Shown here piece by piece: positions 1 through 42,667 of a DNA stretch of 64,000 nucleotides. The stretch is from the NCBI RefSeq assembly GCF_003018255.1, contig NZ_CP027440.1; one strand, written 5' to 3'. The notes beneath the pieces are model-generated. The model was not told the origin of the DNA. It did not search any database and saw only the letters and a list, made by a program, of their open reading frames with translations. The position numbers and the translations under genes are program-made. Origin of the DNA: Escherichia coli. Lineage in GTDB: Bacteria; Pseudomonadota; Gammaproteobacteria; Enterobacterales; Enterobacteriaceae. The stretch's first letter is position 1. Each line of letters begins with the position of its first letter.

Positions 1-107
1 TGCTCCTGACTTAAGCTGCGCACCGACGGCAATTTCTCCCCGTGACGATACAGCCCTTGCTCAATCCGCTCGGCAAGTAGAGTCGCCAGATGTTGATAAC
101 GCGTCAT
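1..107 (-). CDS. yjiR: GntR/MocR-family transcriptional regulator, N-terminal 35 codons only (gene continues beyond window start)
   Basis: Minus-strand ATG at 105-107 preceded by AAGGA; translation MTRYQHLATLLAERIEQGLYRHGEKLPSVRSLSQE looks like a GntR-type winged-HTH N-terminus; lies next to yjiS as in K-12. Confidence 0.55.
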   Translation of the reverse strand, partial: MTRYQHLATLLAERIEQGLYRHGEKLPSVRSLSQE

Positions 108-283
108 GCTGTATTCCTTATTTGGACCATACAGAGAGAAAAACCGGTACAGATGAGGCTAAAAAACCGGATGCAGATGCTGTTTTAACCTGTCTGTATG
201 TTAAATAAAACTAATATTTGCATCTGTATTGTGAACTGCCAGAAGACGGATGATGAAGCCTCTGAAAGATGAGGAGGCAGCAG

Positions 284-448
284 ATGGAATTTCACGAAAA
301 CAAAGCTAAAGCACCGTTTATTGGACTTGTGCAACTCTGGCAGGCAGTGAGGCGTTGGCGGCGGCAAATGCAGGCCCGGCGGGTGTTACAGCAGATGAGT
401 GATGAGCGGTTGAGGGATATTGGGTTACGCAGGGAGGATGTGGAGTGA
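284..448 (+). CDS. yjiS: DUF1127-family small protein (54 aa)
   Basis: ATG at 284 preceded by GAGGAGG; hand translation MEFHENKAKAPFIGLVQLWQAVRRWRRQMQARRVLQQMSDERLRDIGLRREDVE; below the 60-aa cut-off of the ORF track. Confidence 0.7.
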   Translation: MEFHENKAKAPFIGLVQLWQAVRRWRRQMQARRVLQQMSDERLRDIGLRREDVE

Positions 449-544
449 TGGGGCAGTTCGTCGCGGATAAACAGGATTTCTCTATAACCTCCACAAGGAA
501 GTGGTTATTATTGCGAAATCATCGCTTCACGGAAAGACGTCAGA

Positions 545-2638
545 ATGAAAGCTACAGAAGCCCGCCTACTCGATTTTTTAAAACGTTCGCAGCAGTTTGT
601 TATTCCCATTTATCAACGGACTTATTCATGGACAGAACAACAATGTCGGCAACTTTGGGACGACATCATTCGTGCCGGAAAGCGTGACGATATATCAGCG
701 CATTTTATCGGTTCGGTTGTTTATATAGAGCAGGGATTGTATCAGGTTTCTGGTATTTCTCCGTTGCTGGTCATTGATGGTCAACAGCGGCTGACGACCG
801 CAATGTTGCTGATTGAGGCTTTATCACGCCATCTTGGCGAAGACGAAGTTTTTGATGGCTTTTCAGCAATGAAATTGCGTAATTATTATTTACTCAATCC
901 TTATGAGTCCGGCGAGAAAGGATTTAAATTACTGCTGACCGAGACTGATAAAGACAGTTTGCTGGCGTTAATAAAACAAAGACCAATGCCAGAAAACTAT
1001 TCCCATCGAATAATGGAAAACTTTACTTTCTTTGATGAACAAATTGCCAAACTCGGTGATGACTTGATCCCCTTATGTCGTGGGTTAGCAAAGTTATTAA
1101 TTGTCGATGTGGCGCTTAATCGTGGTCAGGATAATCCGCAACTGATTTTTGAAAGTATGAACTCCACCGGTAAGGCGTTAAGTCAGGCCGATCTGGTGCG
1201 CAATTTTATTCTGATGGGCCTCGAACCAGAGCATCAAACCCGGTTGTATGAAGATCACTGGCGTCCAATGGAAGTCGCTTTTGGTCAGCAAGGTTACAGC
1301 GAATATTTTGACAGCTTTATGCGTCATTATCTGACGGTAAAAACGGGGGAGATCCCTCGGACAGATGAAGTCTATGAGGCATTTAAACTCCATGCCCGCA
1401 GCCAGAGTGTTGCTGAAAAAGGCGTAGATCGGCTGGTTGAAGATATTCACATCTACGCGGAGTATTACTGTGCAATGGCATTGGGAAAAGAAAGTGACAA
1501 ATCGCTTGCTACGGCTTTTCAGGATTTGCGCGAGTTAAAGGTCGATGTGGCATATCCTTTCTTACTGGCGCTTTATCATGACTATAAAAATGGCGATTTG
1601 CCTCACGAAGATTTCCTGAGCATAATTCGTTTAATTGAATCTTATGTTTTCCGCCGTGCAGTATGTGCGATTCCGACGAATTCTCTTAACAAGACGTTTG
1701 CCACTTTTTATAAAGTCATTAATAAAGAAAAATATCTGGAAAGTATTCAGGTACATTTTCTGAATCTGCCTTCATATCGTCGTTTCCCCAACGATGATGA
1801 ATTTAAACGGGAATTAAAAGTTCGCGATCTCTATAACTTCCGTAGTCGCAGCTACTGGTTACGACGACTGGAAAACGATAAACGCAGAGAGCGCGTGGAA
1901 GAGTTTACGATTGAGCATATTATGCCGCAGAACGAAAATCTGTCGGCTAAATGGCGCGAAGAGTTGGGAAGCGACTGGCAGCGTGTGCATAAAGAATTGT
2001 TACATACGTTGGGGAATCTCACTTTAACGCGCTATAACTCCCGCTACAGTGACAGACCTTTCGCGGAAAAACGCGATATTGAAGACGGCTTTAAGCATAG
2101 CCCGCTTTATTTGAATATCGGTCTTGGACAGTGCGAAAAATGGGATGAAGCCGCCATTCACGCCCGAGCCGATCGTCTGGCCGATCTTGCGGTTCAGGTT
2201 TGGCAAGCGCCTGCTCTTCCTGAAGAGGTTTTAGCTGTTTATCGGGCGCAGCCGGAGAACAAAACCAGTTACAGCCTGAGTGATTATCCTTTTCTTGCTG
2301 ATGGTTCGCATAGCCGGGTGTTATTTGATCATCTTCGCGATGAAGTTATGCGCCTGGACGCAGGGATCACGCAGGAAGTATTGAAGCTCTATATTGCGTT
2401 TAAAGCTGAAACGAATTTTGTTGATGTTGTGCCGCAAAAAAGCCGACTGCGATTGTCGCTTAATATGCAGTTTCATGAACTGGTCGATCCGAAAGGTATT
2501 GCCAAAGATGTGACAAATGTTGGGCGATGGGGCAATGGCGATGTGGAAATTGGTTTCAGTGACCTCGCACAACTTCCTTACATTATGGGATTAATTCGTC
2601 AGGCATTTGAAAAACAGATGGAGAACGCGTTGGTATAA
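545..2638 (+). CDS. GmrSD-like DUF262 (ParB/Srx-like NTPase) + DUF1524 (His-Me finger nuclease) protein; candidate modification-dependent type IV restriction endonuclease, 697 aa
   Basis: N-terminal motifs IPIYQRTYSW and DGQQRLTT typical of DUF262; C-terminal EHIMPQN...H...GNLTLT...N resembles a DUF1524 His-Me nuclease motif; sits where K-12 has yjiT-mcrCB. Confidence 0.75.
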   Translation: MKATEARLLDFLKRSQQFVIPIYQRTYSWTEQQCRQLWDDIIRAGKRDDISAHFIGSVVYIEQGLYQVSGISPLLVIDGQQRLTTAMLLIEALSRHLGEDEVFDGFSAMKLRNYYLLNPYESGEKGFKLLLTETDKDSLLALIKQRPMPENYSHRIMENFTFFDEQIAKLGDDLIPLCRGLAKLLIVDVALNRGQDNPQLIFESMNSTGKALSQADLVRNFILMGLEPEHQTRLYEDHWRPMEVAFGQQGYSEYFDSFMRHYLTVKTGEIPRTDEVYEAFKLHARSQSVAEKGVDRLVEDIHIYAEYYCAMALGKESDKSLATAFQDLRELKVDVAYPFLLALYHDYKNGDLPHEDFLSIIRLIESYVFRRAVCAIPTNSLNKTFATFYKVINKEKYLESIQVHFLNLPSYRRFPNDDEFKRELKVRDLYNFRSRSYWLRRLENDKRRERVEEFTIEHIMPQNENLSAKWREELGSDWQRVHKELLHTLGNLTLTRYNSRYSDRPFAEKRDIEDGFKHSPLYLNIGLGQCEKWDEAAIHARADRLADLAVQVWQAPALPEEVLAVYRAQPENKTSYSLSDYPFLADGSHSRVLFDHLRDEVMRLDAGITQEVLKLYIAFKAETNFVDVVPQKSRLRLSLNMQFHELVDPKGIAKDVTNVGRWGNGDVEIGFSDLAQLPYIMGLIRQAFEKQMENALV

Positions 2639-2684
2639 CGTGGCGAATAATACCCGGTAGCACTGGCGCTACCGGGTCAATGTA

Positions 2685-3026
2685 TCAGGCGACTTTCTGT
2701 TTACCCGCAATCACCCCAATAAATTCCCGCACCTGCTTTTGTTTACGCGCCGACAGCTTGCACACCTGGCGCAGCGACTGCATTAGCTCGCTCTCTTCGG
2801 GGGCGGGTGGTTGGGCGGTGAGGACAATACAGCCTTCCATCACTTTGACAGCTATCGCCGTGCCGGTGGCAAAACCGGCGGCTTCCAGCCACTGACCTTT
2901 CAGGGTGATGGCGGGAATACGGCTGTAATCCGGGTAGCGACTCGCATAACTCACGGTTAATTGACGGTTATTTGCCGGGGAGACTTCTGCTTCGAACGGT
3001 TGTGCAATAGAATGCGTGTCAGTCAT
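2685..3026 (-). CDS. symE: SymE SOS-induced toxin (type I toxin-antitoxin, AbrB-fold RNase-like), 113 aa
   Basis: Translation from ATG at 3024-3026 ([52 protein letters not shown]...) matches SymE; AAGGA Shine-Dalgarno; the ORF-track N-terminal extension is probably not translated. Confidence 0.85.
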
Positions 3027-3097
3027 AACTGCTATTCCTTGAAAATAGTGATTGTGATGAGCGGTGCGGGTGTGTTGGCGCACATCCGCACCGCGCT
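3020..3097 (+). ncRNA. symR: SymR-like cis-antisense sRNA covering the symE start codon and 5' UTR (approximate ends)
   Basis: Plus-strand -10 TAGAAT at 3008-3013 with weak -35 TTCTGC; the start would fall a few nt inside symE, as described for SymR; a 14-bp stem-loop at 3062-3095 could be the 3' end. Boundaries are inferred. Confidence 0.4.
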
Positions 3098-3104
3098 AAA
3101 TACC

Positions 3105-3120
3105 TGGATATATCATCAGT
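3105..3120 (-). promoter_or_regulatory. Candidate LexA box in the symE promoter
   Basis: Minus strand reads CTGATGATATATCCAG, i.e. CTG-N10-CAG with an AT-rich core, about 80 nt upstream of the symE ATG; symE is a known SOS gene. Confidence 0.35.
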
Positions 3121-3197
3121 AAATACAGGGAAAGTCCAGCTAAAAATTAATGAAAATAAGATAGAAGTTAGCGTGAAATATAATTTTTGGTGATGTG

Positions 3198-3234
3198 AAT
3201 AAAGCGGCTATTGAGCCGCTTTATTGGTTTTATG
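3198..3234. terminator. Hairpin terminator between hsdS and the symE promoter
   Basis: Perfect 11-bp stem AATAAAGCGGC/GCCGCTTTATT with 6-nt loop, followed by GGTTTTA on the plus strand; 13 nt downstream of the hsdS stop on the minus strand. Confidence 0.5.
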
Positions 3235-3246
3235 AGGGCGAGAAAA

Positions 3247-4983
3247 TTAGTTTATCGCCGCGTTAGTCAGTGCGTCTGCAAGGTGCAGTTGGGTTTGTTG
3301 GGCGGTTTTTATACGAGTTTTAAGCTTATCGCATAGTTCATGAAGTAAACCTACTTGTGAAAATATTCTATATTGTTCAGTTAATGGTGGGCATGGGAAT
3401 GAATACAACATTACACTATTTGCTGATAGGTTGGGTTGTGCTGAGCCATTATCAAAGCGGTAAATCTGTGAGCGCCCAAATGGACTGGTTAAATAATTAT
3501 AAATATACCCTCCCATTTCTGTGATAAATGGTCTAATGATCATTAGTGATGAGGCAATAGCTCCTGTTTCATAGGGGGTTACAAAGGCAGTTTTACCAAA
3601 AGTTGCTCCTCGTAGGCAATAAACCAAATCACCTTTTTGAATTTTCCCACTTCTTAATTCATTAAATTTTCCTTCGGTTATAAAATTCATTTCTGTAACC
3701 GTAAGTGTACCATTTTTTTCTATATGTCCAGTATTGATCCAAGGAATACCTTGAGAAACATACTCATTTTTATTGGGATAATTACTTCCACGATCGCCAT
3801 TTATAAACTCTGATGTTAAACCAAATTTACACCACTCCCACCCTTCCGGCAGTTCAAACGGTTTTTCCTCATTGCTAATTGGCGGTAGTGGTTTTTGTTT
3901 TTTTATTTTCCCTTCTTTCACCAGTTGAGCTTTTTCCTGCGCAATTCGTTTGAGCAGTTCAGAGGCGGGTTCGTCATTCGGATCCTGCGGCACAAGTTTA
4001 CCCATTACGGCCAGTTGAAGAATGGTCTGTTTTAACGCATCCACGCTGGCTTCGGTGGTAAATAGGGTGTCGAAATGCTCGCTAATACGCGCCCAGTTTT
4101 CAGCCAGTTCCTCGGCGTTTTGGCTGTCTGTAAGCGTTCCCAACAGGGTTTCAACCAGTTGCTGATGTGCGTCCAGACTGGTCAGGGATTGCTGTTCCAG
4201 TTGGTCGCAGAGAACTGTAAGTTCTCTGATTTTTCTGACAATTTGTTGTTGTTCATTTATAGGCGGTAAAGCGATTATCTGTTGTTCCATTTTTTCTTTA
4301 GTCATATGGAGCATTGCAATACCGTTACCTTGCGATTTTATTTTATCTGTAATGGATAAAAGAAAATCATGTATAAAATATTTGTTTGAGTACTCTTCTG
4401 CAAATAAATTTAATTTCCATATATGGTAGTGATAAATTACTTTTTCTCCTGTCCAAATGAATGGCCCAAAAGATGCGGACCAAGCGTATATTAAATCACC
4501 ATTATTTATATATTTGTTTTCGTCTAATTGGAGGTCAGAGTAATACCACTCATTTGATGTGAATAGATTACCAACACGCAGCAAAGGAGTGCCTGTTTGA
4601 AGCATTTCATGTTTTTTATATGCTCGACCGTTAATAACCTCCATGAGATCTGCAACCCGCACCCACTCCCATCCCTCCGGCAATTCAAACGGCTTCTCTT
4701 CCTCGCTAATTCCTGGCAGTGGTTTTTGCTTTTTAATTTTACCTTGCTTCACCAGCTCTGCTTTTTCCGCAGCAATACGCTTCAGCAGCTCCGACGCCGG
4801 TTCATCATTCGGATCCTGCGGCACCAGTTTACCGCGCACCGCCAGTTCCAGAATCAGCTCACGCAATTTCTTAATGCCATACAAATCAATTTTACCGGAA
4901 CTGCCGCGCCCGGCGGTGGAACGGGTTTGCAACGCCGAGGTCCAGGTTTCCATATGATCAACGATCAGCTTTTCCACACTCAT
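3247..4983 (-). CDS. hsdS: Type I restriction-modification specificity subunit HsdS (578 aa)
   Basis: Two AT-rich variable domains separated by duplicated conserved segments (KLVPQDPNDEPASELLKRIA...KPFELPEGWEW twice); start overlaps the hsdM stop (TGATG). Confidence 0.85.
   Translation of the reverse strand: MSVEKLIVDHMETWTSALQTRSTAGRGSSGKIDLYGIKKLRELILELAVRGKLVPQDPNDEPASELLKRIAAEKAELVKQGKIKKQKPLPGISEEEKPFELPEGWEWVRVADLMEVINGRAYKKHEMLQTGTPLLRVGNLFTSNEWYYSDLQLDENKYINNGDLIYAWSASFGPFIWTGEKVIYHYHIWKLNLFAEEYSNKYFIHDFLLSITDKIKSQGNGIAMLHMTKEKMEQQIIALPPINEQQQIVRKIRELTVLCDQLEQQSLTSLDAHQQLVETLLGTLTDSQNAEELAENWARISEHFDTLFTTEASVDALKQTILQLAVMGKLVPQDPNDEPASELLKRIAQEKAQLVKEGKIKKQKPLPPISNEEKPFELPEGWEWCKFGLTSEFINGDRGSNYPNKNEYVSQGIPWINTGHIEKNGTLTVTEMNFITEGKFNELRSGKIQKGDLVYCLRGATFGKTAFVTPYETGAIASSLMIIRPFITEMGGYIYNYLTSPFGRSQIYRFDNGSAQPNLSANSVMLYSFPCPPLTEQYRIFSQVGLLHELCDKLKTRIKTAQQTQLHLADALTNAAIN
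3829..4032. repeat. hsdS internal direct repeat, copy B (central conserved region)
   Basis: About 200 bp, roughly 80-85% identical by eye to 4660-4863; encodes the second GKLVPQDPNDEPASELLKRIA...PFELPEGWEW segment. Confidence 0.7.
4660..4863. repeat. hsdS internal direct repeat, copy A (N-terminal conserved region)
   Basis: Direct repeat partner of 3829-4032 within the same gene. Confidence 0.7.
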
Positions 4984-6452
4984 CAGTTAACCTCCTTGCC
5001 AGACAGCGCAGCGCCAAGAATATCGCGCAGTTGATTACGCAGCGTCTGGATCTCCGCCTGCTGTTTTGCATACTGCGCTAACAGTTCGTCCGGGTCATGG
5101 CTGACGGTTTCCGCCTGATGTGGGTTTTTAATATCCAGATTGAAGTTACGCGCAATCACGTCATCAATGCTGACTTTCCACGCTTGCTCATTCTCGATGC
5201 GGCTGGCAAAACCATCGGCCTCGTTACCCCACCAGTCAATCTCCGCCTGAAACTCTTCGAACTTCATCGGCTTGGTTTTACTGTAATTTTTCACGCCCGC
5301 CGGATACGGATGCTCATAGAACCAAATCTCTTTGGTTGGCTGACCTTTGGTAAAAAACAACAGGTTGGTTTTAATGCCGGTATAGGGGTTAAACACACCA
5401 TTCGGTAAACGCACGATGGTATGCAGATTGCACTCTTCGGTAAGCAGCTTTTTGATTTTGGTTTTAACGCCTTCGCCAAATAGCGTGCCATCCGGCAATA
5501 CCACCGCCGCGCGACCGTTTTTCGCCAGTACTTCCACAATCAGTTGCAGAAACAGATCCGCTGTTTCGCGGGTTTGCATCTCTGCCGGAAAGTTCTTCTC
5601 AATACCGTCTTCTTCCGTGCCACCAAACGGCGGGTTGGTAACAATGACATCCAGTTGCTCATCCCAGGAGGAAAGCGGTTTGTTCAGGGTGTTGTCGTGA
5701 CGAATTTGTACAGGCACTTCAATGCCGTGCAGCAGCATATTGGTGGTCGCCAGCAGGTGCGGAAGCTGTTTTTTCTCGACACCGTGGATCTGTTGTTGCA
5801 GCGTCTGATGATCGGCGACGCTCTTCACGTATTTGTTCTTTACATGATCGAACGCGCAGGCAAGAAAACCGCCCGTACCGCAGGCCGGGTCCATAATGGA
5901 TTCGCCGAGTTTCGGATCAACGCGATCCACCATAAAGCGAGTGACGGCGCGTGGCGTATAGAATTCGCCAGCATTGCCCGCAGATTGCAGATCTTTAAGG
6001 ATCTGTTCGTAAATATCACCAAACAGATGGCGTTCGCTGGCGCTGGTAAAGTCAATTTCGTTCAGCTTGTTGATCACCTGGCGCAGTAGCGTACCGTTTT
6101 TCATATAGTTATAGGCATCGCTGAACGCCTGCTTCACCACGTAGCCGCGTGGGTTTTTATCGATAGGCGCAGTGAGGTTTTTCAACGCCGGGAACAGATC
6201 ATCATTAACGAATTCCAGCAGGGAATCACCGGTAATGCCCTGAGCGTTTGCGGCCCAACTGCGCCATAAATAACGCTGTGGGATCGGATATTGATAGTTA
6301 TCCTGCTCCAGTTCCAGCGCCTCTTCCTGGGCATCGAAGATTTTCAAAAACAGCAGCCAGGAGAGCTGACCGAGACGCTGCGCATCGCCATCCACACCGG
6401 CATCTTTGCGCATAATATCTTGTAATGATTTGATTACTGAACTGATAGACAT
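4983..6452 (-). CDS. hsdM: Type I restriction-modification N6-adenine DNA methyltransferase HsdM
   Basis: SAM-binding motif DPACGTGGFL and catalytic NPPFGG present. Start chosen at ATG 6450-6452 (MSISSVIK...); in-frame alternative ATGs at 6464 and 6488 (longest ORF 4983-6488). Confidence 0.85.
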   Translation of the reverse strand: MSISSVIKSLQDIMRKDAGVDGDAQRLGQLSWLLFLKIFDAQEEALELEQDNYQYPIPQRYLWRSWAANAQGITGDSLLEFVNDDLFPALKNLTAPIDKNPRGYVVKQAFSDAYNYMKNGTLLRQVINKLNEIDFTSASERHLFGDIYEQILKDLQSAGNAGEFYTPRAVTRFMVDRVDPKLGESIMDPACGTGGFLACAFDHVKNKYVKSVADHQTLQQQIHGVEKKQLPHLLATTNMLLHGIEVPVQIRHDNTLNKPLSSWDEQLDVIVTNPPFGGTEEDGIEKNFPAEMQTRETADLFLQLIVEVLAKNGRAAVVLPDGTLFGEGVKTKIKKLLTEECNLHTIVRLPNGVFNPYTGIKTNLLFFTKGQPTKEIWFYEHPYPAGVKNYSKTKPMKFEEFQAEIDWWGNEADGFASRIENEQAWKVSIDDVIARNFNLDIKNPHQAETVSHDPDELLAQYAKQQAEIQTLRNQLRDILGAALSGKEVN

Positions 6453-6518
6453 GTTGTATTCCATGAAAAACAAGGCCTTCTGCAACATGATGGTTGCAGA
6501 AGGCGCAAAAGAGAGTTG

Positions 6519-8951
6519 TTAAGCAGAGCGGGGCGGTAATTGGTAGATTTCGTTTTCCAGCTCGCTGAGCGCCTGATTATACCCGTTACGGTCGCCAAAT
6601 CCGGTTTTAATAATCTCCGGTAAGGTGCCCATGCTGTCGAATGGTTTAAGTTTCAGCACCTGAATACTTTCGATCTCCTGTACGCCCGCATCGGCGTATT
6701 TATCCAGCAGATTATCGAGCACGGCTTGCGCTGCTTCAGAGTATTTTGTGAAGTAGTTCCGCTTGCGCACGTTCTCGGCGCGCTCTTTGCGGGTTAACGG
6801 CGGCTGACCATACACTACGTGGCAAAGCATGTCGAACGGGTCGAGATCTTTACCGACTTCTTCTGCCAGTACTTCCCAGATGATCCCCTGTTGTTCCAGC
6901 TCGTGAATGATCGCTTCTTTGCGATCGGCGTCCTGCCACTTGCGGGTAAAGTCATCCAGCGAGGCATATTCTTTGAGCAGTGTTTTGCGGGTGTAATCTT
7001 TAAAAGATTCGGTAACCAGTTTACCGTCGGCATCGTAATACTGAACACGCTGCGCAATAACGCCCACCGCTACACCGTTGACGTGAAACTTGCGGATTTT
7101 CTTCTCGTCTTCTTCCGGAAGTGGGCCGACATCATCGGTATCGGTAACCTGGTATGGTGGCGCAGGCGGTTCATCAACGCCTGTTACCTGTTCGTCGTCA
7201 TGTTCGCTGATTTCTTCGAGTTTCTCTTCAAAATCAGATTCTGGATCGGCGATATCCTCTGATGTGGTATCCATGACTTTTTCGGGAATGCCATCGAAAC
7301 GCTCATCGGCAAACAGTTCGGTGGCTTTTTTAAAGTCGAGGATGGTAAACCAGAGTTTGCCGTAACGTTCGTCGATGCGTGTACCACGACCGATAATTTG
7401 CTTGAATTTGGTCATCGACTGGATGTTCTGGTCCAGTACTACCAGTTTGCAGGTTTTAGCATCCACACCAGTGGTCATCAGCTCTGAAGTGGTCGCGATA
7501 ACCGGGTACGCTTTTTTCGGGTTGATGAAGTTATCCAACTGAGCTTTGCCAATTTCATCATCGCCGGTGATTTTCATGACGTATTTGTCGTTCTTTTTCA
7601 CCTGCTCCGGGTTGAGATTCACCAGGGCGCGGCGCATACGTTCTGCATGATCGATGTCGTTACAGAAGACGATGGTTTTATCCATCGGGTTGGTGCGCTT
7701 GAGGTAGTCGGTAATGGTTCTGGCAACCAGTTCTGTCCGTTCGTCGATTACCATCGTGCGATCGAAATCTTTCTGGTTATAGATACGATCGTCGATCACT
7801 TCGCCGTTTAAGTCAGTTTGCCCTTTGGTTGGGCGCCAGCCTTGCAGATCAACATCAATATCAACACGGACAACTTTATAAGGGGCGAGGAAGCCGTCTT
7901 CGATCCCTTCTTTTAGCGAGTAGACGTAAACCGGATCGCCGAAGTAATCCGTGCTGGAGACTTCATGCGTCTCTTTTGGCGTGGCGGTTAAGCCAATTTG
8001 GGTGGCGGAACTGAAATAATCAAGGATCTCTCGCCAGGCGCTGTCTTCGGATGCGCTGCCGCGATGGCATTCGTCGATCACGATCAGATCGAAGAAATCT
8101 GGTGCGACTTGTTTAAACGCTTTTTGGTCTTCCTCCGGGCCAGTTATAGCCTGATAGAGCGCGAGGTGAATTTCATAAGCGGGATCAATGGTGCGTCCGC
8201 TGACTTTGGTCATTGCCGTACCAAATGGCTGGAAATCATTATTTTTGGTTTGGTCGACCAGAATGTTGCGATCGGCAAGGAACAAAATGCGTTTTTTATT
8301 TTTTGATTTCCACAGGCGCCAGATGATCTGGAATGCGGTATAGGTTTTCCCTGTTCCGGTCGCCATGACCAGCAGAACGCGGTTTTGCCCGTTGGAGACG
8401 GCTTCAATGGTTTTGTTGATTGCCTGAAGCTGGTAATAACGAGGCGATTTGCCGCTGCCATCGTCGTAATAGTCCTGAGTAATCACCGGAAGCTGAGCTT
8501 GTGTGTATCCTTTCCAGAGGCAGAATTTTTGCCAGAGTTCAGCGGGGGAGGGGAAGTCATCCAGCGTTATTTGCTTTTCAAGGCATTCACCTTCAGCTGC
8601 GGTGGCATCGCGGAAGATAAAGCCATCACCGTTGGTGGCAAAAACAAAAGGAACGTCCAGCAGGCGCGCATATTCAATGCCCTGTTGCATCCCTTTGCCA
8701 ATTTCATGTTTGTTGGCTTTTGCTTCAATCACGGCTAAGGGAATGCCTGGTTTGTGATACAGCACGATGTCAGCAGATTTTACCGTTCTGCGTGCCGCAA
8801 CTTTACCACGTACGATGACTTTACCGTTCCGGAGTTTGACCTCCTGTCTGATTTGCGTTGTGTTGTCCCAGCCTGCATTGAGAATGGCTGGCATAACGCA
8901 TTTGGTAATGATGTCTGCTTCCGTCAGGTTACTTAGGTTCAGTTCCGCCAT
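6519..8951 (-). CDS. hsdR: Type I restriction endonuclease subunit HsdR, 810 aa (EcoAI-like / type IB size class)
   Basis: Helicase motifs [11 protein letters not shown] (Walker A) and VIDECHRG (DECH box); 810 aa is far shorter than EcoKI-type HsdR; gene order hsdR-hsdM-hsdS on the minus strand. Confidence 0.9.
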
Positions 8952-9091
8952 GGGGTGTTCTCATCTAAATGCGATGCGTAAATTCTACACAGAAAAATAG
9001 ATGAATTCATCTGTTCAAAGAGTATTATCAGCGTTAAGTCACTGTTTTAAAGGTATTCTTGAGTTTCATCAATAGCTGGATAAGGATTCAT

Positions 9092-10060
9092 ATGGAGAAT
9101 GTTCGGTTCTTGCAAGGAGTGAAACAATATTTTTGTACTAAGGCATTAGATGTCATTCTGCTAATTTATCTACTCCTTGGTTTTATACTTCTCCCTTATA
9201 AATATCTGTGGAAAGATATTATTTTATCTCTGTACTTTGTTGGTATTCTTCTTTATGCATTAGTGGAAGAAAATCGCATTGCAGAATATATGGGGTATTT
9301 TGTTAAGTTCAGTAATAAAAACAGGTTGAATAGTTGTGCTGCCTGGTGTTCACTTATTGCATGGTTTATATTTTTGTTTTTTGTGCTTTCAATTAATATT
9401 TTTCCAGTCAGTGCCTCTGTATATATTTTTAGTGCTTTTTCATTATTTGTTTTTCTGGGGGGTATTTTTATTATATTAGAGTTAGAGTTTAAAGAAAATA
9501 AAAAATTAATGATTATTAGGTCTGTGACTATAGCAGTCATGCCAATTATATATTTATTCACAAGTAGTTATGCTTCCAGTTTATTTTTAAGTTTGAGTAA
9601 TCTAAACATTACGCTAACTCCATGGGTTGAGTATTTCTGGAAAGGGATGGTTTTTATGTTGCTTTTCTTCATGTTAATGCAACTTATTATCTATTTTGCT
9701 TTTTTAACTCTGGGGACTAAATTAAGTGTGTATAGGTTGTTTATACTTGCCGGAGCATTTGTAGTATCTACTTTTTTAGTGGCTTTTGCTTTAAAAAATG
9801 TAGAAGGTATTTCGTACTACGTTTTAAAAAGCACCATAGATTTTGAATGGCGTAATCAGATTAAATGTGGCCAGTTGAATATTTCACGTTCGAATGAAAA
9901 GTATTTTGGGTTTAATACTGATAAATATACTGTATTTTATTCCGGCAGAGATGGTAAATGGGGCTTTGATGAGTTGAAATGTAAGAAAGGTTCTGACAGG
10001 AGAGATGCATATTCTATTGAGAATGTCTCAGAATATAACGTGCCTGGATGGCTGAAATAA
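9092..10060 (+). CDS. Hypothetical polytopic membrane protein (about 7 TM helices plus 80-aa hydrophilic C-terminal domain), very AT-rich gene
   Basis: Long ORF in AT-rich DNA; ATG at 9092 preceded by AAGGA (the ORF track begins at a TTG at 9059); hydrophobic segments throughout; lies where K-12 has mrr; I recognise no family. Confidence 0.55.
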   Translation: MENVRFLQGVKQYFCTKALDVILLIYLLLGFILLPYKYLWKDIILSLYFVGILLYALVEENRIAEYMGYFVKFSNKNRLNSCAAWCSLIAWFIFLFFVLSINIFPVSASVYIFSAFSLFVFLGGIFIILELEFKENKKLMIIRSVTIAVMPIIYLFTSSYASSLFLSLSNLNITLTPWVEYFWKGMVFMLLFFMLMQLIIYFAFLTLGTKLSVYRLFILAGAFVVSTFLVAFALKNVEGISYYVLKSTIDFEWRNQIKCGQLNISRSNEKYFGFNTDKYTVFYSGRDGKWGFDELKCKKGSDRRDAYSIENVSEYNVPGWLK

Positions 10061-10377
10061 GTCATCTTTATAAATTATATAGTAAAGGTTCTGGTCATAA
10101 ACGAGCATAGTTAAACATAAACGGGGCATACTCCACACACTTGATGTGCAGCAAGAAGTTGAACTCATGGCTTTGGTTAATAAATCTGACGAAGATATTG
10201 ATTACAGCGACATTCCTGCGTCTGGTAGCGAAGCATGGGCTGACGCCACACGCGGCAATTTTTTGCCAGATCCAGGTATTCACGCGCAATAAAACTTAGC
10301 GGAGGGGAGCACGTCGTTCTGTTTCCCCCTCACTGCTAAGTGGGGCATTGGGTTGCTTTACACTCAACCTTTTACGA

Positions 10378-11334
10378 TTATTTCCTCAACCCCGCAAACG
10401 CCGCCCGAATCTTATCCTCCGGCAGCTGAATCCCGATAAACACCATTGTGCTATGCGGTGTTTCATCGCCCCACGGGCGGTCCCAGTCGGCGCTGTAGAG
10501 GCGTTGGACGCCCTGGAACAGCAGGCGGCTAGGTTCGCCGTCAATCCACAGCATCCCTTTGTAACGCAGTAGTTTATCCGCCGATTCCAGCAGCAGGTTT
10601 TCCATCACGCGGGAAACTTCGCTGATATCTACCGGGTAATCCAGTTCCACCACAATCGACGAAATATCGTTTTGTTTATCCGCGATAAAGTGGAAACGCG
10701 GTTTGGTGCTGACGACGTTTTCTTCCAGCATAAAACCGTTGGTGTTGAACAACAGGCCCAGGTCGATGTCACCGTGGGTGACGGTGTAGACCGGTGCGCG
10801 GGCGTTGATGCGCGCCAGGCGTTCACGCAGTTTCTCTACTTCGCCTGCGACGTCGGTTTTAGTCAGCAGAATACGGTCAGCGTAGCCCACCTGGGACTGG
10901 GCGATGGTGAACTGGTTCATCTGCTCATCGGCATGTACCGCATCCACCAGCGCAATCACGCCATCCAGCAGGTAACGCTGGCATAAAATCTCATGGGAGA
11001 AAAAGGTCTGAATAATCGGGCCGGGATCGGCCATGCCGGTGCATTCAATGACCAGACGGTCGAACTGAATATTGCCCTTGTCGAGATTGTCCAGCAGGTC
11101 GAGTAGCGCGTCCTCCAGCTCGTTGGAGCGCGAACAGCAGATGCAGCCGTTGGTCAGCGTTTTGATCTGCGTGGCGCGGTCGCCAATCAGTTGATCATCA
11201 ACGGAGACTTCGCCGAATTCGTTTTCAATCACGGCAATTTTGTAGCCGTGCTGTTCATTAAGAATATGGCGCAGCAGGGTGGTTTTGCCCGCGCCTAAAA
11301 AACCGGTGAGTAGGGTAACTGCAATCGGGTTCAT
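10378..11334 (-). CDS. yjiA: CobW/P47K-family GTPase (zinc chaperone-like) YjiA
   Basis: MNPIAVTLLTGFLGAGKTTLLRHIL (P-loop) from ATG at 11332-11334; the ORF-track N-terminal extension is not used. Confidence 0.9.
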   Translation of the reverse strand: MNPIAVTLLTGFLGAGKTTLLRHILNEQHGYKIAVIENEFGEVSVDDQLIGDRATQIKTLTNGCICCSRSNELEDALLDLLDNLDKGNIQFDRLVIECTGMADPGPIIQTFFSHEILCQRYLLDGVIALVDAVHADEQMNQFTIAQSQVGYADRILLTKTDVAGEVEKLRERLARINARAPVYTVTHGDIDLGLLFNTNGFMLEENVVSTKPRFHFIADKQNDISSIVVELDYPVDISEVSRVMENLLLESADKLLRYKGMLWIDGEPSRLLFQGVQRLYSADWDRPWGDETPHSTMVFIGIQLPEDKIRAAFAGLRK

Positions 11335-11344
11335 GCTCTCTCCA

Positions 11345-11548
11345 TTAACAACAGCGCATACCGCCTTTACCATCGCCGCCGTAGCGCGCGTTCTGGCGTT
11401 CGCGGAAGAATTCTTCATAGCTCATGTACGGCTTGTCGGGATGGTTGGTCTTCATATGCTCGACGTAGTTGTCGTAGTCTGGAATGCCAATCAACATCTT
11501 CGCCGCCTGGCCGAGATATTTTTTTGCCTGTCCTAAGTTACCAAACAT
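11345..11548 (-). CDS. yjiX: DUF466 small protein YjiX
   Basis: 67-aa [51 protein letters not shown]..., conserved partner of btsT. Confidence 0.85.
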
Positions 11549-34335: not shown

Positions 34336-34422
34336 TGGTGCGAGGGGGGGGACTTGAACCCCCACGTCCGTAAGGACACTAACACCTGAAGCTAGCGCGT
34401 CTACCAATTCCGCCACCTTCGC
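34336..34422 (-). tRNA. leuV: tRNA-Leu (anticodon CAG), third gene of the leuQPV operon
   Basis: Reverse complement reads GCGAAGGTGGCGGAATTGGTAGACGCGCTAGCTTCAGGTGTTAGTGTCCTTACGGACGTGGGGGTTCAAGTCCCCCCCCTCGCACCA (87 nt, encoded CCA). Confidence 0.95.
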
Positions 34423-34456
34423 ACAGTCATCTTACTTTTTTTGATATTGCCTCGTT

Positions 34457-34543
34457 TGGTGCGAGGGGGGGGACTTGAACCCCCACGTCCGTAAGAACAC
34501 TAACACCTGAAGCTAGCGCGTCTACCAATTCCGCCACCTTCGC
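34457..34543 (-). tRNA. leuP: tRNA-Leu (anticodon CAG), middle copy; variable-arm C-to-T variant relative to the flanking copies
   Basis: Same 87-nt sequence except plus-strand A at 34496 (tRNA sense GTGTTCTTAC instead of GTGTCCTTAC). Confidence 0.95.
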
Positions 34544-34571
34544 CCAGTGCGAGCAATATCAACGTGGTTTT

Positions 34572-34658
34572 TGGTGCGAGGGGGGGGACTTGAACCCCCA
34601 CGTCCGTAAGGACACTAACACCTGAAGCTAGCGCGTCTACCAATTCCGCCACCTTCGC
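34572..34658 (-). tRNA. leuQ: tRNA-Leu (anticodon CAG), promoter-proximal copy
   Basis: Identical 87-nt tRNA-Leu sequence. Confidence 0.95.
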
Positions 34659-41674: not shown

Positions 41675-42450
41675 TTTGCCGTTTTATCGACACCCACTGC
41701 CATTTTGATTTCCCGCCTTTTAGTGGTGATGAAGAGGCCAGCCTGCAACGCGCGGCACAAGCGGGCGTAGGCAAGATCATTGTTCCGGCGACAGAGGCGG
41801 AAAATTTTGCCCGCGTGCAGGCGTTAGCGGAAAAATATCAACCGCTGTATGCCGCATTGGGCTTGCATCCTGGTATGTTGAAAAAACATAGCGATGTGTC
41901 TCTTGATCAGCTACAGCAGGCGCTGGAAAGGCGTCCGGCGAAGGTGGTGGCGGTGGGGGAGATCGGTCTGGATCTCTTCGGCGACGATCCGCAATTTGAG
42001 AGGCAGCAGTGGTTACTCGACGAACAACTGAAACTGGCGAAACGCTACGATCTGCCGGTGATCCTGCATTCACGGCGCACACACGACAAACTGGCGATGC
42101 ATCTTAAACGCCACGATTTGCCACGCACTGGCGTGGTTCACGGTTTTTCCGGCAGCCTGCAACAGGCCGAAAGGTTTGTACTGCTGGGCTACAAAATCGG
42201 CGTAGGCGGTACTATCACCTATCCACGCGCCAGTAAAACCCGCGATGTCATCGCAAAATTACCGCTGGCATCGTTGTTGCTGGAAACCGACGCGCCGGAT
42301 ATGCCGCTCAACGGCTTTCAGGGGCAGCCTAACCGCCCGGAACAGGCTGCGCGGGTGTTTGACGTACTTTGCGAGTTACGCCCGGAACCAGAAGATGAGA
42401 TTGCCGAAGTGTTGCTAAATAATACGTATACGTTGTTTAACGTGCCGTAG
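41671..42450 (+). CDS. yjjV: TatD-family metal-dependent hydrolase/DNase YjjV
   Basis: (M)ICRFIDTHCHFDFPPF... TatD motifs; TTG start overlapping the yjjU stop. Confidence 0.85.
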   Translation: MICRFIDTHCHFDFPPFSGDEEASLQRAAQAGVGKIIVPATEAENFARVQALAEKYQPLYAALGLHPGMLKKHSDVSLDQLQQALERRPAKVVAVGEIGLDLFGDDPQFERQQWLLDEQLKLAKRYDLPVILHSRRTHDKLAMHLKRHDLPRTGVVHGFSGSLQQAERFVLLGYKIGVGGTITYPRASKTRDVIAKLPLASLLLETDAPDMPLNGFQGQPNRPEQAARVFDVLCELRPEPEDEIAEVLLNNTYTLFNVP

Positions 42451-42667
42451 GCCGGATAAGGCGTTCACGCCGCATCCGGCAGTTGGCGCACAATGCCTGA
42501 TGCGACGCTTGACGCGTCTTATCATGCCTACAAGTCTGTGCCGAACCGTAGGCCGGATAAGGCGTTCACGCCGCATCCGGCAGCTGGCGCACAATGCCTG
42601 ATGCGACGCTTGACGCATCTTATCATGCCTACAGGTCTGTGCCGATCCGTAGGCCGTATCCGGCATG
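42447..42667. repeat. BIME-type tandem array: two ~100-bp units (each carrying two REP palindromes) plus a partial third unit
   Basis: Units 42447-42547 and 42548-42645 are near-identical (GTAGGCCGGATAAGGCGTTCACGCCGCATCCGGCAG...TGCCTGATGCGACGCTTGACGC...) followed by GTAGGCCGTATCCGGCATG. Confidence 0.65.

Follow-up and report, generated by a model that had tools for sequence, protein, structure and literature searches.

The symE/symR toxin-antitoxin locus in a type IB/GmrSD allele of the Escherichia coli immigration control region

In Escherichia coli K-12, symE/symR (yjiW/ryjC) is a type I toxin-antitoxin locus at which SOS induction of symE, repression by the antisense RNA SymR both in cis and in trans, and control by Lon have been documented (Kawano 2007; PMC1891008). 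SymR is constitutive in that strain and about 10-fold in excess over the mRNA; it blocks translation, brings the mRNA level down about threefold, and acts independently of Hfq and RNase III (PMC1891008). The same study aligned symER of K-12, O157:H7, CFT073, UTI89, Shigella, and Salmonella, and remarked on the association of SymE genes with restriction-modification (R-M) systems (PMC1891008). For the immigration control region (ICR), the defence hotspot between yjiS and yjiA, types IA, IB, and ID, GmrSD, and symE-symR are described as standard content by a 2025 EcoSal review (PMC12707154), and the order GmrSD homolog, "endoribonuclease", hsdSMR was drawn for some E. coli ICRs by He et al. 2015 (Fig. 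8; PMC4437046). Published work already covers the locus, the way it is regulated, and its position inside a variable restriction island, and the feature is an ordinary one. Here, we analyzed a stretch of 64,000 nucleotides from E. coli (RefSeq assembly GCF_003018255.1, contig NZ_CP027440.1), called the window throughout, in which a sequence-only reading had placed a symE/SymR module inside a remodelled restriction island at 2685-3234.

Two groups of known systems resemble this locus in part. The tisB/istR-1 pair, E. coli's second type I toxin-antitoxin system under SOS control, combines, like symE/symR, a LexA-repressed toxin gene with a constitutive small RNA that blocks translation. TisB is a membrane peptide of 29 amino acids (aa), and IstR-1 is encoded beside its target without overlapping it. 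In contrast, SymE is a soluble protein of 113 aa with an AbrB fold, and SymR is a true cis-antisense RNA; tisB/istR-1 was mentioned in the K-12 study (PMC1891008). Like SymR, the antisense RNAs of hok/Sok and of plasmid systems such as CopA/CopT form stable hairpins, show full complementarity with the 5' part of their target mRNA, and occlude translation initiation. In those systems RNase III cuts the duplexes, and of the two partners it is the antisense RNA that is unstable. SymR differs from them in that RNase III is dispensable and in its 10-fold excess over the mRNA in K-12.

Our comparison indicated that the segment is very probably the canonical E. coli symE/symR locus, commonly counted among the type I toxin-antitoxin pairs, and that the ICR allele around it, type IB/GmrSD, is a common one. 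Gene order, overlap, the 113-aa SymE, and the 77-nt SymR were all as in K-12, and the base-by-base alignment with the K-12 symE/symR locus that the sequence-only reading had called for, together with the protein and RNA family models, confirmed the identity of the locus. Nucleotide identity with the K-12 locus was 93% over 469 bp (2689-3157), and the window is K-12 base for base from 2965 to 3037, a stretch that holds the -10 hexamer of symR, the start codon of symE, and the 5' end of SymR. The LexA box lies in the same place, and the chromosomal slot is the same, with hsdS on one side and a type IV cassette on the other, to the left. The 3' hairpin of SymR is common to both except for an A in K-12 instead of the G at 3064; K-12 further differs in six SymR loop bases, in an operator with CTGT rather than CTGG, and in its neighbours on both sides. 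The identity, integrity, position, and conservation of every sequence element were thus observed directly, and the features are collected in table 1. For comparison among strains, 15 alleles were drawn from a rank-spread list, and some elements were compared in 16 alleles.

The symE gene was found to be intact, as proposed from the sequence alone, with an ATG start codon at 3024-3026 in the open reading frame (ORF) listing and neither a premature stop nor a frameshift. Its product is a full-length member of the SymE family of AbrB/MazE-like toxins: it matched Pfam SymE_toxin (PF08845) with an E value of 2.4e-21 and the NCBIfam equivalog NF010128 with 224.6 bits (cutoff 132) over residues 1-112 of 113, within 3 bits of the K-12 protein, which scored 227.6 bits. 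The two SymE proteins are 93% identical, with eight amino-acid differences, D59A among them. A PDB sequence search with SymE gave no match even at E <=10, so that the support for an AbrB/MazE relationship comes from Pfam and the literature. The annotation of strain 2014C-3338 calls the identical sequence symE, and the ORF was uninterrupted in all 15 full alleles sampled. The exact allele of the window is rare (seven records at an identity of at least 99%). Among the sampled alleles, Pro76 was seen in the window only, and Arg100 was common to the window and alleles L010 and L011 only.

The opposite strand carries SymR, which matched Rfam RF01809 over the full length of the model (1-77) and scored 91.7 bits, well above the gathering score of 61. 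The antisense start a few nucleotides inside symE, anticipated by the sequence-only reading, was placed by Rfam three bases past the ATG, and the first 6 nt of SymR overlap symE codons 1 and 2. SymR is therefore a cis antisense RNA across the symE start region, complementary to the 5' untranslated region (UTR), the Shine-Dalgarno sequence, and the first two codons. The plus-strand TAGAAT -10 that had also been proposed is the hexamer of K-12; it ends 7 nt ahead of the SymR 5' end, which is likewise identical to that of K-12, and was unchanged in 16 of 16 sampled alleles. The K-12 mutation that abolished SymR, CATTCT to CACTCC as read on the symE strand, struck this very hexamer (Kawano 2007; PMC1891008). 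The symR promoter thus lies inside the symE ORF with a validated -10 and a poor -35. For the RNA, a fold with two hairpins and -39.3 kcal/mol was obtained (z = -6.1), and none of 200 shuffled sequences was as stable; across six SymR alleles, standard pairs occupied 98.3% of pair cells, versus 25-55% when the register was slid. The stem-loop described at first is real, although its 14 bp at 3062-3095 had been set one base too high, in a register that does not pair; the actual stem has 15 bp and pairs 3061-3075 with 3080-3094. At base 3064, the G of the window turns the A/C mismatch of K-12 into a G-C pair. No U-run follows this hairpin in the window, and the same is true of K-12. Reading on from SymR along the plus strand, the hairpin between hsdS and symE, a perfect 12-bp palindrome, is the first canonical terminator to be met, the SymR 3' hairpin lacking a U-run.

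Two further Rfam matches at 3052-3237, to IS128 (26.6 bits, gathering score 80) and sraL (23.4 bits, gathering score 39), were driven by the two hairpins, disappeared at the gathering thresholds, and were rejected as chance. A variant of the 3' hairpin was observed in strain MB1159 of sequence type 131 (ST131), whose SymR lies at 6313-6389: the loop and closing pair, window 3075-3080, are inverted from TTGGCG to CGCCAA. The stem is kept, and the Rfam score of 83.1 bits remains above threshold; this was 1 of the 16 sampled alleles.

Upstream of symE, the LexA-like CTG-N10-CAG box of the sequence-only reading was recovered, although the claimed position of 3105-3120 was one base too high and the core is at 3104-3119. 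The bare CTG-N10-CAG pattern occurs 26 times in the window versus 14 expected; being non-specific, it was dropped as stand-alone evidence, and a 20-mer comparison was used instead. The window 20-mer and the operator of K-12 yjiW/symE are identical at 19 of 20 positions, and 0.00 such matches were expected by chance. The sole difference is CCAG in the window versus ACAG in K-12 on the symE strand (base 3107, G versus T), the sequences reading ...ATATCCAGGT and ...ATATACAGGT, respectively. As a putative LexA operator the site thus qualifies by its sequence, and its K-12 counterpart is on record as a LexA site, SOS induction included (PMC1891008). Both CTG and CAG were unchanged in 16 of 16 sampled alleles. 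When complete E. coli genomes were searched with the operator 31-mer, the window version was found in 1,974 and the K-12 version in 437; many of the latter are laboratory K-12 derivatives. The O157:H7 LexA 20-mer is identical to that of the window, and in O157:H7 EDL933 symE rose 2.5-fold with ciprofloxacin and was listed among SOS genes (PMC11125564). These EDL933 data provide indirect evidence that the operator allele of the window may still respond to DNA damage.

The nearly invariant block beyond the operator supports a functional element there. From spacing, we propose a candidate symE promoter with a -35 of TGGACT (3138-3133), a -10 of TGATAT (3115-3110), and a start near 3103. With this placing, the operator would span the -10 to +1, and SymR would be complementary to nearly the whole leader.

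Table 1. Positions of the symE/symR elements and of the flanking restriction genes in the window
Feature	Position	Strand	Basis
symE coding sequence, 113 aa, stop included	2685-3026	-	ATG-started ORF
symR promoter -10 hexamer TAGAAT, within symE ORF	3008-3013	+	K-12 identity
SymR antisense RNA, 77 nt	3021-3097	+	Rfam RF01809
symE Shine-Dalgarno AAGGAA, 8 nt upstream of ATG, inside SymR-complementary region	3035-3040	-	Read from sequence
Hypervariable hexamer, apical loop of SymR 5' hairpin	3038-3043	+	Allele diversity
SymR 3' hairpin, 15-bp stem and 4-nt loop	3061-3094	+	Minimum free energy structure and Rfam consensus structure
Putative LexA operator, symE strand TACTGATGATATATCCAGGT	3102-3121		19/20 match to K-12 box
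Nearly invariant block, presumed symE promoter -35 region; right edge of conserved module	3128-3147	-	1 variable site in 20, 16 alleles
Palindromic terminator hairpin between hsdS and symE, 12 pairs then GGTTTTAT	3198-3225		Terminator-like site
GmrSD-family type IV restriction gene, 697 aa, intact, left flank	545-2638	+	Pfam and PADLOC
hsdS, right flank	3247-4983	-	Pfam Methylase_S
hsdM, right flank	4983-6488	-	Pfam N6_Mtase
hsdR, right flank	6519-8951	-	Pfam ResIII, EcoEI_R_C

Expression, LexA binding, and toxicity in the window strain would follow those of K-12 by homology. LexA at the operator would hold symE transcription off until DNA damage, and SymR would be transcribed from the promoter inside the symE ORF, the one with TAGAAT. 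As a perfectly complementary RNA, SymR would pair with the symE 5' UTR, Shine-Dalgarno sequence, and start codon and block translation; it would also lower the symE mRNA level modestly, with no need for Hfq or RNase III. SymE that gets made would be degraded by Lon, and the protein, with its predicted AbrB/MazE fold, would be toxic when overproduced.

The surroundings of the locus differ from those of K-12. Within the first 12 kb of the window, homology with K-12 was seen in only three places: 1-453, which runs up to the 3' end of yjiS; 2689-3157, which is symE/symR; and 10378-11440, which is yjiA. The segment thus lies in the ICR, and the flanking restriction genes differ from K-12. In agreement with the earlier claim that the module is conserved while its flanking restriction genes are not, 2689-3157 was the only K-12 homology between the flanks.

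On the left, where K-12 holds mcrBC, the window has the GmrSD-family gene. Its product contains GmrSD_N (residues 9-222), GmrSD_C (415-547), and DUF5655 according to Pfam, and is predicted to be a fusion of DUF262 (GmrS) and DUF1524/HNH (GmrD) in one intact protein; it matched the PADLOC Orf5 model PDLC02693 with an E value of 3.8e-223, and the HEC-06 and mREase_IV matches were much weaker. In O157:H7, the loss of 1 bp from a G5 run (about 1345-1349 in window numbering) breaks the GmrSD homolog in two, whereas the window copy is intact. The NCBI Prokaryotic Genome Annotation Pipeline (PGAP) divides the byte-identical GmrSD sequence of 2014C-3338 into a pseudogene and a coding sequence of 387 aa, which looks like an annotation artefact.

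On the right, K-12 has the EcoKI type IA hsdRMS, and the window carries a type IB (EcoAI-family) R-M cassette. HsdR scored 1191.8 on the EcoAI equivalog NF046051 (cutoff 550) and 216.6, below the cutoff of 729, on the EcoKI-type model NF008521; the PGAP annotation of the near-identical strain 2014C-3338 agrees with the hsd assignment. Alleles linked to IB (window, O157:H7) have the terminator between hsdS and symE, and K-12 and ST131 lack it. It is part of the type IB hsd cassette, outside the conserved module, and it probably ends hsdS transcription and shields symE from read-through.

These cassettes are not peculiar to the window. The ICR of the O157:H7 type has the same cassettes (GmrSD homolog, symE, EcoAI-family hsdSMR), the same junctions, and the same intergenic terminator, with about 96.7% nucleotide identity over 1-3323; its hsdS specificity regions differ from those of the window, and the alignment was only partial over 3323-4658. 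Among 5,426 complete genomes, 967 have the symE-hsdS(IB) junction and 1,286 have that of GmrSD with symE; the complete genomes positive for symE number 2,872. The island had been called remodelled; its flanks do differ from K-12, but the term overstated the case for what is a standing, common ICR allele found in O157:H7. The first 12 kb aligned with 2014C-3338 without gaps at 99.5% identity, and 607 bases around symE/symR were identical. Most of the 58 differences between the two cluster at 9379-10963, in yjiA and in a 333-aa ORF.

This ORF (9059-10060, plus strand, TTG start) lies in the slot of K-12 mrr, is annotated as a hypothetical protein in 2014C-3338, and had no match in NCBIfam or PADLOC. 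Elsewhere in the window, two tandem naRNA4 (RF02564) matches at 42450-42629 and three tandem tRNA-Leu(CAG) genes at 34336-34658, presumably the leuVPQ cluster, are ordinary E. coli content.

Both edges of the module could be located by comparison among strains. At the right, agreement among the 16 sampled alleles ends at 3147; from 3148 on, the sequences fall into families according to the right-hand cassette. At the left, homology with K-12 starts at 2689, 4 nt inside the stop-codon end of symE; in the ST131 type, homology starts within the last eight symE codons and the C-terminus is different. Between these edges the module was found in diverse company: GmrSD with IB (window, O157), GmrSD with IA (WP8), mcrBC with IA (K-12), no left cassette with a third hsd type (ST131), and IS1 with IA (LST200A). 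Polymorphisms inside the module (3126-3127, 3027-3031) were unlinked to either flank. The module edges and this shuffling are consistent with cassette exchange in the ICR, the symE block being one putative homology island. In LST200A (5288-6165, corresponding to window 2993-3157), an IS1A insertion or deletion has removed symE past its first approximately 34 nt, together with what lies upstream of the symR -10. Left beside a type IA hsdS are the LexA box and an orphan SymR, which scored 93.1 bits.

This pattern raises the alternative that the block of approximately 470 bp is kept mainly as a homology anchor for the ICR, or as a selfish hitch-hiker, and that its toxin-antitoxin activity is incidental. 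Homology edges at 2689 and 3157, uniformity up to 3147 followed by cassette-linked families, the independent assortment of left and right cassettes, and internal polymorphisms linked to neither flank are all in keeping with such a role, and the proposal in Kawano 2007 was that SymE modules, as selfish elements, co-locate with R-M systems (PMC1891008). However, little or no variation was seen in the TAGAAT hexamer, the CTG/CAG core, and the SymR stems against a module diversity of 5%, which is conservation far beyond neutral drift, and the ORF is intact in every one of the 15 full alleles. This regulatory conservation, along with the intact ORFs, argues for selection on function. As the main reason for the persistence of the block, anchoring or hitch-hiking is therefore unlikely, though it retains some weight; it adds to the explanation by a canonical toxin-antitoxin locus and does not displace it.

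Several observations weigh against the assignment to a canonical, working symE/symR locus. Codon 59 of symE (2850-2852) encodes Ala in the window and Asp in 14 of 14 other E. coli alleles sampled. The half-sites of the operator deviate at the fourth position (CTGA and CTGG, not CTGT), and repression may thus be weaker than at strong SOS boxes. A generic promoter scan of 2600-3300 found no consensus promoter; it also missed the proven symR promoter, whose -35 is poor, and a scan blind to a proven promoter is unusable against the finding. A covariation test on six SymR alleles within E. coli found no compensatory double changes, but it was uninformative because there is too little divergence inside the species. 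Finally, the biochemical activity of SymE is disputed: its toxicity was first ascribed to RNA cleavage, and Thompson et al. 2022, as reported in PMC11894785, described SymE as having non-specific DNA binding and nucleoid compaction and no endoribonuclease activity.

Some of these points would also fit a module that is present but decayed, with a weak LexA operator or a SymE crippled by D59A, surviving as a relic between selected restriction cassettes. The CTGG half-site where K-12 has CTGT, the second half-site CTGA, the substitution at codon 59 found in none of the 14 other alleles, and the rarity of the exact allele could be taken in this way, and decay is known elsewhere, IS1 having taken out most of symE in LST200A. 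Yet the ORF is full length and scores almost as high as K-12 SymE on the equivalog model, and the CTGG operator is the majority allele, with which symE was induced in O157:H7 EDL933. In addition, no damage is seen in the -10, the start codon, the SymR stems, or the core of the Shine-Dalgarno sequence. We therefore regard decay as very improbable. That chance motifs (TAGAAT, a GC hairpin, and CTG-N10-CAG) merely happen to lie 5' of an unrelated small ORF, as the 26 copies of the last motif in the window and the empty promoter scan might suggest, can be dismissed, since the curated RNA and protein models scored well above their thresholds, the K-12 locus aligned at 93% identity over 469 bp, and the operator 20-mer matched with 0.00 expected.

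The most variable part of the canonical locus is the apical loop of the SymR 5' hairpin. Diversity per site was 0.50 in this hexamer versus 0.050 across the module, making it the top-ranked 6-nt window, and seven distinct hexamers were found among 15 alleles. The window has CTTGAA where K-12 has TCCAGG, so that six of six positions differ, all by transitions, and O157:H7 has CCTATA; TCCGAT is a further version. On the symE strand, the hexamer overlaps the Shine-Dalgarno sequence and the bases just 5' of it. A Shine-Dalgarno sequence is marked upstream of the symE start codon according to the legend of Fig. 1A in Kawano 2007 (PMC1891008), and its core, GGA or GGG, was retained in 15 of 15 sampled alleles. 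In plasmid antisense RNAs, loop changes alter recognition, and on this model the SymR loop might be under diversifying selection for allele-specific antisense recognition groups. We consider this improbable: the evidence for such groups extends only as far as the hypervariability of the loop, and that is explained equally well if the loop, being unpaired, is under relaxed constraint or if the strength of translation is being tuned.

The annotation of the window can carry symE, SymR, and the LexA operator with the corrected coordinates of table 1. The database product name "endoribonuclease SymE" depends on a contested activity and should be read with caution. For E. coli as a species, the minority allele of the LexA box is that of K-12, and the allele of the window is the majority one. 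If allele-specific recognition groups of SymR did exist, an incoming symE on a foreign ICR cassette would partly evade the resident SymR, and the module would then act as a compatibility gate on cassette exchange.

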